64,000 nt of DNA. It comes from a virus. The notes beneath the pieces are model-generated. The model was not told the origin of the DNA. It saw only the letters and a list, made by a program, of their open reading frames with translations, and did not search any database. This document shows positions 31,501 through 63,054 of the stretch, piece after piece (positions within the stretch are counted from its first letter, which is position 1; each line of letters starts with the position of its first letter). The stretch is taken from the IMG/VR virus record IMGVR_UViG_3300034107_000314, positions 32,001 through 96,000 of that record; one strand, 5' to 3'. Position numbers and translations under genes: made by a program.

Positions 31501-33684
31501 TTAAACTAATTCGCAGCCACCAGAAGTACAAGCAAGAGCCTGTTCTAGTTGTGTGTCATCATATATCTCTTCTACAACTGTATAGTCCACTTCTTTGTAC
31601 TCCCGTTTGAGTTCTGTCCATAGTTTGAAGTTATAAATATCCTTCATGCAATATGTAAGCTCTTTAATATCACCTTCAAAATACTTATTAGCAAATTTCT
31701 TGCATCTCTCTACCCATTCGACTTTCGCTTTTCCTTTGATTGGACTTCCAAGACCAGAAATGCTATCACACGCTGCCCAAAGATTATCTTCCCATAAATT
31801 AAGAGCTACTTCGATCAAACCACTTACAAACATAACTCCTTCACCATAATGAGATATCATCTCACTAGGTAAATACACAGCCGTGAATGGGGCTTGTGGA
31901 TAATCTTTATCTCCAGTCACTGGAAGTAAAGAAATGCCGCAGAAGAATTCTCTATTAGCATAGATAAAATCCTCTACTTCATTCCATTCATCGGGCTTAA
32001 CATTGATTGTATTACTTACGTTGTGAGTTAGCCAAGGCTTAGTGCAAAGCTCAATATTAGTGCCGGGCAATACCCAGTTCTGTTGTGTTGACTTTACAAT
32101 CTTAAGTAACTCAATAGCTGTAATCTTATTCTTTGTTTTGCTACCGTCTGGGACTTCAATACAGAAAGCAATTACATCATCGGTTCTATTGGCCGACCAA
32201 ACAGATTCTTCGCACGCTCTTGGGTTGACTTTGTTGAAGTGCTGGTACAGTGCCTCCACCTTATTCGCCTGTACGCGACGAATATAGCGTTTAGCGTGAT
32301 GAGGGTGAATACCACTGGCAGTGCCAAGGATACAGCTAGCAGTGCCTTCAGGCTTGACACAGGTGACTCTCGCCGCTTGATTAATTCCAATCTTCTGGGC
32401 GATAGATTTGTTGGTTTCTTTTGCAAGCTCTGCTGCCTTTCGTTGAATATCTGGATTCAAGCAGATCTCAGGCTTTTCTAACCAACCTGTTCCAGATACA
32501 CCTAGTAATGCTTCTCTAGCAAAAATCTTTTCACTAGTCTCTCCTAAATATGGAAAACTATTAAATCCAGCTTGAAGAGTTCCAATAATAGTTACTGCTT
32601 TAACTGCATCATAAAACTCTTGTTCAGTAGTAACTTTAGCACAGTTAACTGTAGAAAGATTACAACCTTGCCATCCACTCTTGCCAGTTTCTACATCTAC
32701 TGGATACATGCCAATTTCAACACATGGATTAACAATAAAATCTTCATCGTCGGCCCATACGAAACCCGGTTCACCAAATTGCTTAACTGACTGCATTAAT
32801 TCTGCAAATTGTTCAGGAGTTGTCTTATCTCTTAAAAGAAGTGCTGAATTATTTGATCGACCCCTATGAGGATTATCGGTAAACCAATTGCCAGTTTTAG
32901 CTGTAGCCATCTCTTTATCATCTGGCGAGAAGAGGCAAATGGTAGCACTACGCCTAACTCCACCACTAATAACAGCATCGGCAGCGTGCATAACAATGTC
33001 ATATGCTTCGATTGGTTTAATTCTGAAATCACCTCTGTTAATGGCATTGTCTAACACTTTCTTAATGTTGTTAAGAGCTTTCTTTAGCGGTTCTGAACCC
33101 GGAGCTTTTCCACCTCCAGAAATTCTTGTACCTTTCGCTCTAATCTTGTCAAAATTAAACTGAATTTCTTTTCCTTGATATTCTGGAAAATCAGTTTCAC
33201 CTTCAAAATAAGAACTTAGCAATACACCGATTGCATCACTCCAACCTTCAATTTCATCTGGTACAGTATACTTGACTTTTCCAGATCTTTCTTTTGATAG
33301 GTTAGGTAGTTTATCAATGTGTTTTTTCTGCACTGAAAATCCTACGCCACAACCACAAAGAAGCATATACATGCACTCTTGAAAGAATCGCATTCTATCA
33401 ATGAAAGATACTGTACAATTAAACATACGGGCGTTATGCTTAAAGATAGGATCTCCACCAAATTGCAAAGCTCTCTGCGAGCCTAAACCTTTCTTCTTGA
33501 GCATCATATCATATGCCCAGTCAATATCTGCGTGCAAATCTTCGCTCTTATCTGCATATTGTTTATGCATCATATTCCTAACGCGATCCACACTCTCCTT
33601 GTATGTTTCTCGCCTCTTCTTATCTGGTAAATATCTTGCATATTTTGCGGAAAATGTGTAATCCTGTAAAGCTTTAATCGACAT
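31501..33684 (-). CDS. nrdJ: class II (adenosylcobalamin) ribonucleotide reductase
   Basis: FNC, GGVRRSA, NPCVEI, CNLS, TCVKPEGTAS, C-terminal CxxxxC. Confidence 0.92.
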   Translation of the reverse strand: MSIKALQDYTFSAKYARYLPDKKRRETYKESVDRVRNMMHKQYADKSEDLHADIDWAYDMMLKKKGLGSQRALQFGGDPIFKHNARMFNCTVSFIDRMRFFQECMYMLLCGCGVGFSVQKKHIDKLPNLSKERSGKVKYTVPDEIEGWSDAIGVLLSSYFEGETDFPEYQGKEIQFNFDKIRAKGTRISGGGKAPGSEPLKKALNNIKKVLDNAINRGDFRIKPIEAYDIVMHAADAVISGGVRRSATICLFSPDDKEMATAKTGNWFTDNPHRGRSNNSALLLRDKTTPEQFAELMQSVKQFGEPGFVWADDEDFIVNPCVEIGMYPVDVETGKSGWQGCNLSTVNCAKVTTEQEFYDAVKAVTIIGTLQAGFNSFPYLGETSEKIFAREALLGVSGTGWLEKPEICLNPDIQRKAAELAKETNKSIAQKIGINQAARVTCVKPEGTASCILGTASGIHPHHAKRYIRRVQANKVEALYQHFNKVNPRACEESVWSANRTDDVIAFCIEVPDGSKTKNKITAIELLKIVKSTQQNWVLPGTNIELCTKPWLTHNVSNTINVKPDEWNEVEDFIYANREFFCGISLLPVTGDKDYPQAPFTAVYLPSEMISHYGEGVMFVSGLIEVALNLWEDNLWAACDSISGLGSPIKGKAKVEWVERCKKFANKYFEGDIKELTYCMKDIYNFKLWTELKREYKEVDYTVVEEIYDDTQLEQALACTSGGCELV

Positions 33685-61149: not shown

Positions 61150-61755
61150 ATGAAACAATGTAAGAAGTGTTTAGACACAAAAGATTTATCGGATTTTACA
61201 AAAAATAAGAATTCAAAAGACGGTTTATGCTGTTATTGTAGAATATGTAAATCTCAAGTAGATCGTGATTACTATAAAAATAATAGCAAAGAGATCAACA
61301 AGAGAAGGTTGTCGTATCATAAAACCAGTCCGATTCCTAAAGAATGTCGTAAACGATATGCAAAAAGTGAGAAGGGCAAAATGGCCCAACGTAAATATGT
61401 TAAAAAACGCTATCAGTCAAATCTTGAATTTAAGATTCGGACAACGCTTAGAAGTCGATTAAAACATGCAATAGACGGAAATATTAAAAAATTATCCGCT
61501 ATTAAATTACTTGGATGCACTGTAGAATATTTTATATCGTACATTGAATCCAAGCTATTGCCTGATATGACTTGGGAAAATTATGGAAATCCCAATGGAA
61601 ATCATAGTGATTGTTGGCATATTGATCACATAATACCATGTGCTAGATTTAATCTAGTAGATCTAGAACAACAAAAATTATGTTTTCATTATACTAATTT
61701 ACAACCACTATGGGCAAAAGATAATTTATCTAAAGCTGATAAAATTATCAGTTAG
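61150..61755 (+). CDS. HNH/EndoVII-like homing endonuclease, paralog of 58710-59249
   Basis: CKKC..CRIC; MTWENYG...WHIDHIIPC; NLQPLWAKDN. Confidence 0.85.
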   Translation: MKQCKKCLDTKDLSDFTKNKNSKDGLCCYCRICKSQVDRDYYKNNSKEINKRRLSYHKTSPIPKECRKRYAKSEKGKMAQRKYVKKRYQSNLEFKIRTTLRSRLKHAIDGNIKKLSAIKLLGCTVEYFISYIESKLLPDMTWENYGNPNGNHSDCWHIDHIIPCARFNLVDLEQQKLCFHYTNLQPLWAKDNLSKADKIIS

Positions 61756-61993: not shown

Positions 61994-62204
61994 CTTTATT
62001 CTCCATTTGAAACACGGTTAAGTTGTCCACGTCTTTATTATACTTGACAGAACCCTGATTGTCAAGCAAGTCCGTAGAAAAATTTCCAATTTCCACTCCA
62101 GCGTTCGTCACGGTCACTGTTCCCGTAAGAAAACGACCATCTTCTTTTCCACCAACAACTGTTTGTGATACGAATGATTCTGTAAGTTTAGCTGTTTGAT
62201 TCAT
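61968..62204 (-). CDS. hypothetical protein
   Basis: SD GAGGAG before ATG 62204. Confidence 0.6.
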   Translation of the reverse strand: MNQTAKLTESFVSQTVVGGKEDGRFLTGTVTVTNAGVEIGNFSTDLLDNQGSVKYNKDVDNLTVFQMENKDANLDSRF

Positions 62205-62385
62205 TTTTAATCTCCTCAAGTCTTTTAATGATAGCATTCCACTGGGTAGGCATCAGGCAACCGGATAGCTGATGCAACAAAAATTTAATCTGTTCTTCCT
62301 GAACTTTCAACTTCAATTCTAAATCTCGCATGTTGCTTTCCATAAATGTGAAATTTGGGTCAATTGATTCTAGATCTTCAGACAC
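62188..62385 (-). CDS. hypothetical protein
   Basis: GTG start with SD AAGGA. Confidence 0.55.
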   Translation of the reverse strand: MSEDLESIDPNFTFMESNMRDLELKLKVQEEQIKFLLHQLSGCLMPTQWNAIIKRLEEIKNESNS

Positions 62386-62411: not shown

Positions 62412-62486
62412 TGGAGCGTGAGGGAATCGCACCCTCGCCCTTCCGTTTTCTCCAGAAGCTGTTAAGCTAAACTACAGTAACGCCCC
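62412..62486 (-). ncRNA. non-canonical tRNA-like RNA with Ala identity (G3-U70, A73)
   Basis: GGGGCGT/ACGCTCC acceptor stem; T-arm GAGGG-TGCGATT-CCCTC; loop GAGAAAA lacks U33. Confidence 0.7.
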
Positions 62487-62494
62487 GTTTAAAA

Positions 62495-62584
62495 AGTTGG
62501 ATGGGGAGATCTTGGCTCCATAGGAATTGCAGTCCTCTGATATACAATCTATCATACATACCACCCATTATTGTACATCCAACT
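62495..62584 (-). ncRNA. candidate multibranched RNA between tRNAs
   Basis: 9-bp closing stem AGTTGGATG/CATCCAACT enclosing three short hairpins. Confidence 0.4.
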
Positions 62585-62585
62585 A

Positions 62586-62670
62586 CGAGAAGTGAAGGAT
62601 TTGAACCTCCGGGACTTTTACATCCTTCCGTTTTCAAAACGGACGCATTAGGCCACTCTGCCAACTTCTC
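62586..62670 (-). tRNA. tRNA-Ser(TGA)
   Basis: Cloverleaf with long variable arm; TCCGT-TTTGAAA-ACGGA. Confidence 0.9.
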
Positions 62671-62673
62671 AAG

Positions 62674-62746
62674 GGTACTCGACGGGATTCGAACCCGCAA
62701 TCACAAATTCCACAAATTTGGGCTTTACCAATTCAGCTACGAGTAC
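62674..62746 (-). tRNA. tRNA-His(GTG)
   Basis: CAAAT-TTGTGGA-ATTTG; C73; G-1 not encoded. Confidence 0.88.
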
Positions 62747-62748
62747 AG

Positions 62749-62826
62749 TGGAAGTGAGAGGAATTGAACCTCTGCAAATGTCCCGGCGTTTCAAACCGGC
62801 GCTCTACCAAACTGAGCTACACTTCC
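62749..62826 (-). tRNA. tRNA-Phe(GAA), enlarged variable loop
   Basis: CCGGT-TTGAAAC-GCCGG. Confidence 0.8.
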
Positions 62827-62846
62827 AATATCATTGAGACTGCAAA

Positions 62847-62920
62847 TCTAGATGAGAGGATTTGAACCTCTGGCCTCCTGTTCCCAAAACAGGCGCTCTA
62901 CCAAACTGAGCTACACCTAG
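62847..62920 (-). tRNA. tRNA-Pro(TGG)
   Basis: CCTGT-TTTGGGA-ACAGG; C1-G72, A73. Confidence 0.9.
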
Positions 62921-62925
62921 CTCTA

Positions 62926-63015
62926 CGGAATCGACAGGATTTGAACCTGTGGGAACTCAAATGCAGCTCCAACGGTTTAGCAAACCGCCGCCTTAAACCA
63001 CTCAGCCACGATTCC
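62926..63015 (-). tRNA. tRNA-Ser(GCT)
   Basis: GCGGT-TTGCTAA-ACCGT; long variable arm; G73. Confidence 0.9.
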
Positions 63016-63025
63016 TTACTACTGT

Positions 63026-63054
63026 ATTATACCCTATGCCAATCAAAAAGTCAA
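63026..63054 (-). promoter_or_regulatory. sigma70-type promoter of the tRNA cluster
   Basis: TTGACT-17-TATAAT, 10 nt upstream of tRNA-Ser. Confidence 0.8.

Follow-up and report, generated by a model that had tools for sequence, protein, structure and literature searches.

A conserved, putatively non-decoding tRNA-shaped RNA with alanine identity marks at the end of a phage tRNA operon

Results

Organization of the locus

The DNA studied here comes from an uncultured lake phage, a 155,259-bp virus record in IMG/VR (IMGVR_UViG_3300034107_000314; 36% G+C) that has 15 tRNA-type genes, none of the 15 being a tRNA-Ala. By the window we mean the whole stretch analysed, the 64,000 nucleotides from position 32,001 to position 96,000 of that record, and coordinates refer to it unless a contig is named. 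On the minus strand, an operon runs from a promoter through tRNA-Ser(GCU), tRNA-Pro, tRNA-Phe, tRNA-His and tRNA-Ser(UGA) to a 98-nt spacer, a 75-nt tRNA-shaped element and a 65-codon ORF. An earlier note on this DNA, written from the letters alone, had described the element as the last of the tRNA operon, and it is indeed the final tRNA-shaped gene after the promoter at 63054-63026; the minus-strand sequence that the note gave for 62412-62486 was exact on re-reading. The features of the locus are as follows.

63026-63054, minus strand: sigma-70-like promoter of the operon, TTGACT-17-TATAAT, conserved in relatives
62585-63015, minus strand: five canonical tRNA genes, Ser(GCU), Pro(UGG), Phe(GAA), His(GUG) and Ser(UGA), in the same operon as the element
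62487-62584, minus strand: 98-nt structured spacer RNA from tRNA-Ser(UGA) to the element, an optional module
62412-62486, minus strand: the element, a 75-nt tRNA-shaped RNA gene, putatively non-decoding (sequence, ARAGORN, Rfam and fold)
62480-62486, minus strand: 5' strand of its acceptor stem, GGGGCGT, with G3 at 62484 (sequence)
62459-62477, minus strand: D arm, CTGT, 11-nt loop AGTTTAGCTTA and ACAG, in which AG replaces G18G19
62441-62457, minus strand: anticodon arm, TTCTG, GAGAAAA and CGGAA (sequence and ARAGORN), with G32 at 62452, A33 at 62451 and 'GAA' at 62448-62450
62420-62436, minus strand: T arm, GAGGG, TGCGATT and CCCTC, with G55 at 62430 and position 57 at 62428
62412-62419, minus strand: 3' strand of the acceptor stem, ACGCTCC, with U70 at 62415, and the discriminator A73 at 62412
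62188-62385, minus strand: first downstream ORF, 65 aa, with a GTG start 26 nt past the element

No terminator-like site was found on the element's strand before the next ORF. The spacer is present in some relatives and absent from others, with two very different interiors, and its terminal stem GTTGGATG...CATCCAAC is conserved (in the window and in contigs L009, L022, L054, L070, L073 and L083). One spacer hairpin covaries, with two compensatory changes (GGAG/CTCC, GAAG/CTTC and GGAA/TTCC). As far as its sequence tells, the 98-nt spacer is a separate structured RNA. Matches of the operon to the YrlA and plastid-UTR families of Rfam were discarded; they overlap real tRNAs and lie far below the cut-offs.

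Several other features of the neighbourhood were recorded. In the canonical tRNA-Phe(GAA) of the window (62748-62826, minus strand) the variable region is 9 nt long, GACATTTGC, which is unusual. On the strand opposite to the element, a gene of the endonuclease VII/HNH (homing-like) type (61150-61755, plus strand) lies amid the small downstream ORFs; it is missing from that place in the gene lists of the relatives. Some relatives (L083 1-700 and L084 1-702) encode a protein of 501 aa about 500 nt upstream of a tRNA operon ending in the element; this protein has a Cas12f1-like/TnpB zinc-finger domain (PF07282). The alignment of L020 revealed a second armless tRNA-like piece some 120 nt ahead of the operon promoter, where a GGAAGT/ACTTCC closing stem, identical to the acceptor sequence of the phage tRNA-Phe, surrounds a GGGGG-TGCAATT-CCCCC T arm. 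Outside the window, a descriptor scan of the genome found an acceptor-like stem with a GG-containing single strand and a 6-bp T arm (TTCGATT), 42 nt in all, at G000:C1:121166-121207 (minus strand).

Structure and tRNA calls

The element has four perfect stems: an acceptor stem of 7 bp (G1-C72, G2-C71, G3-U70, G4-C69, C5-G68, G6-C67 and U7-A66), a D stem of 4 bp, an anticodon stem of 5 bp and a T stem of 5 bp. Its first five acceptor pairs are those that the earlier note had listed for tRNA-Ala and tmRNA, and the G3-U70 pair and A73 reported there are both present. Counting C26-G44 extends the anticodon stem to 6 bp, and the 3-nt linker described earlier holds on that count; ARAGORN, however, draws a 5-bp stem and a variable region of 4 nt. 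At minimum energy the RNA folds into the cloverleaf (-28.4 kcal/mol, z = -2.33), and its stability matches that of the adjacent canonical tRNA-Phe (z = -2.36).

ARAGORN calls the element tRNA-Phe(GAA). The Rfam tRNA model (RF00005) scores it at 35.1 bits, which reaches the gathering score of 29 (E = 0.0013 when the window is searched, 7.5e-7 for the genome), against 56-73 bits for the phage's other tRNAs. Both programs, which had been proposed as checks, thus recognize a tRNA. CCA is encoded neither in the element nor in any of the 15 tRNA genes of the genome.

Anticodon loop and elbow

In decoding tRNAs, U33 makes the U-turn that presents the anticodon, and position 32 is normally a pyrimidine. 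The element's loop, GAGAAAA, has G32 and A33 at these places, though the purine of decoding tRNAs at position 37 is present as A37; this is the all-purine loop lacking U33 that had been described before. Among 154 distinct tRNA sequences from the phage loci that we fetched, position 33 is T in 145 and C in 5, and A33 occurs only in the element. The combination of G32 and A33 was found in 0 of the 151 other distinct phage tRNAs examined. Set against phage tRNAs in this way, the anticodon loop is a real anomaly of the element. Because A33 and G32 stand in the loop, while it is U33 that makes the U-turn, decoding by the element is very unlikely and its loop very probably cannot read codons. The earlier judgement that the RNA is unlikely to decode is therefore supported by a loop in which A33 is unique among the phage tRNAs compared.

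The D loop without GG and the UGC T loop had also been listed as departures from a tRNA. The letters are as described: the element has A18/G55 in place of G18/psi55, AG where GG is normal, and a TGC T loop, so that the canonical elbow pattern of G18-psi55 and G19-C56 is missing. They do not appear to be defects, however, as the same A18/G55 elbow is found in complete decoding sets of other phages. In several unrelated viral contigs, whole sets of otherwise normal decoding tRNAs for most amino acids have the T loop U54-G55-C56-R57-A58, the D loop A-R-C-A-G and no G18G19 (L028, L029, L036, L037 and L041 as whole loci; also L025, L030, L035, L042 and L047). Judged by their letters, then, the D and T loops of the element appear to form a coherent alternative elbow (A18 with G55, and G19 with C56) and probably do not reflect decay, and this elbow looks systematic in some large phages. 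The other 14 tRNAs of the element's genome have the ordinary GG/TTC elbow, and the element's gene may therefore come from elsewhere.

Occupants of the slot in related phages

About 50 closely related lake-phage contigs were gathered through pattern scans, the neighbouring phosphoesterase and the downstream 65-aa protein, and we compared what follows tRNA-Ser(UGA) in them. The 75-nt element is found nearly unchanged in at least 22 related records. Position 57 is G in the window and A in all relatives, the other variant of the 75-nt form is a single G-to-A change in the variable loop of L077, and the anticodon arm has the same letters in every 75-nt copy. A 57-nt form, shorter by exactly the 18 nt of the anticodon arm and variable region, occupies the slot in L008, L019, L022 and L023. 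L064 and L090 hold a cut-down version of the 57-nt form, and L070 and L088 a 24-nt stub with the C11 typical of it; the remnants in relatives are truncated at two different points. A canonical tRNA-Ala(UGC) is present in the slot in L009, L051, L054-L062, L065, L072 and L086, and a truncated copy of that tRNA in L063, L066, L068, L069 and L071. Finally, in L100 and L101 the element is followed, after 3 nt, by tRNA-Ala(UGC) in tandem. Lineages thus keep the element, tRNA-Ala(UGC), both, or wrecks, and the element is dispensable in that some lineages hold only remnants.

The tandem arrangement in L100 and L101 rules out that the element and tRNA-Ala(UGC) are alternative alleles of one slot; since both stand there side by side, they are neighbours. 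The two have common anticodon-stem strands (TTCTG...CRGAA and the next RGC), and only the loop region differs. From these shared strands, together with their common alanine identity, we infer that they are tandem paralogues, and the element is probably a diverged neighbour copy of tRNA-Ala(UGC). Identical copies of the element were found in differing flanking contexts among the relatives. In L020 the gene that follows it is a different one, and in L100 and L101 it is a tRNA.

Searches further afield were negative. GenBank phages gave no match to the element closer than E = 0.6, so it is absent from the cultured phages there, the IMG/VR pattern scans (acceptor plus T loop; anticodon arm plus T loop) gave no distant homologue, and a scan of GTDB genomes gave no homologue. 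Two 57-nt matches considered as distant armless relatives, L034 and L050, proved to be pieces of permuted tmRNA genes (RF04321, 72.8 bits).

Constraint on the full-length form and decay of the armless form

As neutral proxies we used, in the same haplotypes, the 26-nt 3' intergenic stretch and the third-codon positions of two downstream ORFs, whose codon-position diversity (position 2 far below position 1, and position 1 below position 3) is that of coding sequence. Over all 17 distinct haplotypes, 6 of 75 sites vary in the element against 34 of 149 in the proxies (p = 0.0056). The contrast is stronger in the 14 haplotypes of the 75-nt form, where the figures are 2/75 and 29/149 (odds ratio 0.11, p = 3.4e-4). 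The core of the element has a diversity of 0.0025 and the arm one of 0.008; for third positions the value is 0.049 and for the intergenic stretch 0.071. The conservation of this form is about that of second codon positions and has a sharp boundary, with 5 variable sites in the 26-nt 3' flank. In the 57-nt form, by comparison, which is represented by three haplotypes only, 3 of 57 sites vary against 7 of 148 neutral sites (p = 1). Three of its four copies have a D-stem mismatch, C11.A24, and a change of A50 to G, giving G50.U64, is fixed.

We read these data as purifying selection on the complete cloverleaf, including the anticodon arm, and we take the loss of that arm to inactivate the gene. 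The arm appears to be needed because the 57-nt form evolves neutrally and is further truncated in some contigs. The neutral rate and decaying stems of a tRNA pseudogene are seen in the 57-nt and truncated forms and not in the 75-nt form. The 57-nt form might be taken to prove the anticodon arm dispensable, but the clade-wise diversity test and the truncated derivatives speak against this. The relaxed constraint and further truncation of these natural arm-lost variants also tell against the 'minimal' mimic that had been proposed, as the whole cloverleaf appears to matter, whereas the argument that the stems speak against simple decay is borne out by a full-length form as conserved as second codon positions.

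The earlier note had asked for two comparisons across relatives. G3:U70 and the first five acceptor pairs turned out to be invariant in all copies; as G3:U70 never varies, selection on alanine identity as such is no more than possible. No covariation was seen, the relatives being too close, with 0 compensatory double changes. Part of the low diversity may be owed to a cassette that spread recently within a tRNA region prone to recombination, but the variable flanks directly on both sides argue against a simple sweep.

Alanine identity and partner proteins

The acceptor set for alanine is read by AlaRS without use of the anticodon. All the marks of an AlaRS substrate, namely G3:U70, A73 and the pairs G1-C72 to C5-G68, occur in the element, and charging itself is predicted. 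The alanine identity claimed earlier is thus upheld, at the level of a full identity set in a well-formed tRNA-shaped RNA. Laboratory tRNAs that combine G3-U70 with a GAA anticodon can accept either Ala or Phe (PMC3239215). We used the three-pair T-stem model of the same study, with its tabulated range of -8.2 to -10.7, to predict affinity for EF-Tu. For the element's T stem (G49-C65/A50-U64/G51-C63) the prediction is about -10.5 kcal/mol, close to the tightest tabulated value; the values are about -10.1 for the neighbouring tRNA-Ala(UGC) and about -9.1 for the 57-nt form with its G50.U64. Given this tight predicted T stem, the element does not appear to be built to avoid EF-Tu, and the weak EF-Tu-binding T stem that marks tRNAs of the cell-wall type is not predicted for it. 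No FemAB, Fem-like GNAT, SmpB, CCA-adding enzyme or AlaX-type domain was detected in the 155-kb phage genome. The suggestion of a non-ribosomal alanine donor that avoids EF-Tu is weakened by the predicted tight T stem and by the lack of a Fem-type transferase in the phage. Four metatranscriptome assemblies that include small parts of the window have contigs, which cannot show RNA ends, that cover a relative's tRNA-Ser(UGA) and ORFs and not the element.

A different alanine-type RNA was seen inside the tRNA clusters of L027 (4097-4167, minus strand) and L044 (3308-3378, plus strand). It has the acceptor GGGGCGA...TCGCTCCA, the T loop TGCAATT and an 8-bp arm capped by the loop GCGTACG, and it receives no ARAGORN call.

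Comparison with tmRNA

The Rfam tmRNA model (RF00023) aligns locally to the element with 23.1 bits, against a cut-off of 47, and ARAGORN found no tmRNA. There is no room for a tag frame within the 75 nt, and we found no mRNA-like domain, as had been stated before. The proposed likeness to tmRNA or to its TLD did not hold up: the score is below the cut-off, the TLD's stemless D loop and helix P2 in place of the arm are replaced here by a 4-bp D stem and a 5-bp anticodon arm, and the TLD D-loop motif is lacking.

RNAs that resemble the TLD-only tmRNA of phage DS6A were seen in unrelated viral contigs. These look-alikes are 75-80 nt long with no coding part, and have a GGGGC...TCGAC 5' end, a T arm and a GCTCCA end; they lie in L002 (2848-2927, minus strand), L005 (2824-2903, plus strand), L031 (2303-2377, minus strand), L039 (360-437, plus strand) and L048 (397-472, minus strand). 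With the tmRNA model L031 scores 41 bits and L048 31 bits, both below the cut-off. These RNAs lack the arms that the element has, and the element does not belong with them.

Discussion

A full-length tRNA shape with a loop that probably cannot decode could be explained in several ways. One is a functionless, decaying tRNA pseudogene that looks conserved because its descent is recent or because a cassette spread recently. Deletions are concentrated in the slot, where the element occurs in armless and truncated versions and tRNA-Ala in truncated ones, compensatory changes number 0, and a homing-type endonuclease gene lies 660 nt away, all of which would fit. However, the 75-nt form has 2/75 variable sites against 29/149 (p = 3.4e-4) between flanks that are variable on both sides, its four perfect stems have the fold stability of a real tRNA, and clearly broken forms do accumulate changes; we therefore consider a pseudogene unlikely. 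We also doubt that the tRNA shape is a processing or stability signal in cis, that is, a cutting mark for RNase P or RNase Z or a protective 5' structure before the mRNA. The element's position would suit such a signal, since it follows the tRNAs and stands 26 nt ahead of the start codon of the first ORF with no terminator between; so would its intact acceptor and T arms. RNase P requires only an acceptor-T minihelix, though, and the 57-nt form keeps this minihelix yet shows relaxed constraint and decay. Moreover, the element also stands before the different gene of L020 and the tRNA of L100 and L101, and a signal in cis would not need its alanine marks or exact loop sequence to be kept.

Another reading, improbable in our view, is an alanine carrier outside decoding, charged by AlaRS, whose ester serves a transferase or a ribosomal event that needs no codon, while the dead anticodon bars the RNA from ordinary translation. 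The full alanine identity set speaks for a carrier; the non-proteogenic tRNA-Gly of Staphylococcus likewise has a UGC T loop and no GG in its D loop (PMC7826273), and Fem transferases are reported to accept acceptor-arm helices (PMC2655667). On the other hand, the elbow is not diagnostic, as whole decoding tRNA sets have it, the T stem is predicted to be tight for EF-Tu, the opposite of the Staphylococcus donors, and the search of the phage for a FemAB, Fem-like GNAT, SmpB or AlaX-type domain was negative; a carrier would also leave the requirement for the anticodon arm unexplained. We think it very unlikely that the element is an odd decoding tRNA that, A33 notwithstanding, reads UUC/UUU through GAA and carries Phe, Ala or both, since G32 and A33 together occur in none of the other phage tRNAs examined (0/151), U33 is established as the maker of the U-turn and position 32 as a pyrimidine, alanine charging would recode Phe codons, and a normal tRNA-Phe(GAA) is already in the same operon. 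What favours decoding is the ARAGORN call of tRNA-Phe(GAA), a score above the Rfam tRNA cut-off, the predicted tight T stem, the apparent selection on the anticodon arm and the precedent of GAA and G3-U70 laboratory tRNAs that take Phe or Ala (PMC3239215). The leading idea of the earlier note, a tmRNA-like domain that acts by titrating SmpB or by tagless ribosome rescue, seems to us the least probable of all. The GGGGC...GCUCCA acceptor and the local tmRNA match of 23.1 bits point that way, true TLD-only look-alikes exist in other viral contigs, and mycobacteriophage DS6A has a TLD-only tmRNA, such RNAs being inhibitors of tmRNA (PMC4131195). But the score is below the cut-off of 47 and ARAGORN finds no tmRNA, the D stem and anticodon arm occupy the place of SmpB, the TCGAC-type D loop of real TLD-only RNAs is missing, and no smpB gene was found in the phage.

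We suggest instead, with moderate confidence, that the element is a functional, non-decoding phage paralogue of tRNA-Ala that works in trans as a look-alike of a whole tRNA, and among such roles we prefer that of a decoy. The element would be transcribed together with the tRNA operon, excised by tRNA-processing enzymes that are expected to recognize its shape, and given CCA by the host. Its alanine marks would suit it for AlaRS, good binding to EF-Tu is predicted from its T stem, and its purine-only loop, with G32 and A33, should form no U-turn and hence read no codon. A host factor directed at tRNA-Ala could then bind the element as a competitor or decoy that it can neither use nor cut. The candidate target is a tRNA-cleaving or tRNA-modifying defence enzyme that needs the whole L shape, and the genuine tRNA-Ala(UGC) that adjoins the element in some relatives would replenish the pool.

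Our preference for a decoy rests on several points: the alanine-type body is kept, the arm appears to be needed and the loop would be neither readable nor cuttable at a pyrimidine, the element adjoins a genuine tRNA-Ala in an early tRNA operon, and its pattern of presence and absence is typical of counter-defence genes. Against it, a loop unlike any real anticodon loop might escape a loop-specific enzyme, and we know of no tRNA-Ala-specific nuclease for the element's host. Defences against phages that are directed at tRNA are widespread (PMC10264068, PMC12851939). Altogether, the evidence is weaker on the purpose of the tRNA imitation than on the element being a look-alike under selection. A more far-reaching version of the decoy can be offered only tentatively, as possible rather than probable: the second copy of a duplicated tRNA-Ala may have become an alanine-chargeable, EF-Tu-binding, non-decoding and uncleavable stand-in that neutralizes a tRNA-Ala-directed immune enzyme while its intact neighbour refills the pool, and it may be one of a broad, undescribed class of alanine-type tRNA decoys of phages.

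Phage tRNA genes are now regarded as weapons against defences that cut or modify tRNAs, and nearly all known cases are decoding. Here a full-size tRNA appears to be under selection despite a dead anticodon loop, and the arm-less copies provide a natural control. What is new is the contrast, within one lineage, between a constrained full form and a decaying armless form, together with the tandem link to tRNA-Ala(UGC) and the prediction of tight EF-Tu binding. Should charging and a decoy role be confirmed, the element would constitute a second phage route against tRNA-directed immunity or alanine-specific tRNA handling, and would account for many of the 'odd tRNA' calls in phage genomes. As a small RNA, it is easy to synthesise.

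The literature that we searched held no full-cloverleaf, non-decoding phage tRNA of alanine identity, and the TLD-only tmRNA of DS6A was the only phage tRNA mimic found in it. Several known systems nevertheless bear comparison. The pseudo-tRNA 'tRNA-Other' of Bacillus cereus (PMC3399842) is reported to be likewise tRNA-shaped and not working in translation, yet to have a cellular effect; it is chromosomal, associated with a genomic island and of different identity. The non-proteogenic tRNA-Gly of Staphylococcus (PMC7826273; PMC3239215) resembles the element in its complete cloverleaf, its TGC T loop, the lack of G18G19 and its position apart from ordinary decoding. It has, however, a usable UCC anticodon and a T stem weak for EF-Tu, as against the dead loop and predicted tight T stem of the element, and no Fem transferase was found beside the element in the phage. 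The DS6A RNA is, like the element, a phage-encoded alanine-type tRNA look-alike that cannot decode, and a decoy role through titration of SmpB has been proposed for such RNAs (PMC4131195). The DS6A RNA and the jakobid mitochondrial tmRNA (PMC4131195) are without a D stem and anticodon arm, whereas the element has both, appears to need the arm, and scores below the tmRNA cut-off. Canonical tRNA-Ala (RF00005, including the neighbour in L100 and L101) differs from the element in that the latter has the loop GAGAAAA, no alanine anticodon and an A18/G55 elbow. The two are alike in their normal-size cloverleaf, G3:U70, A73 and GGGGC start, in their place in a tRNA operon without encoded CCA, in a T stem predicted to bind tightly and, for the neighbour, in shared anticodon-stem strands.
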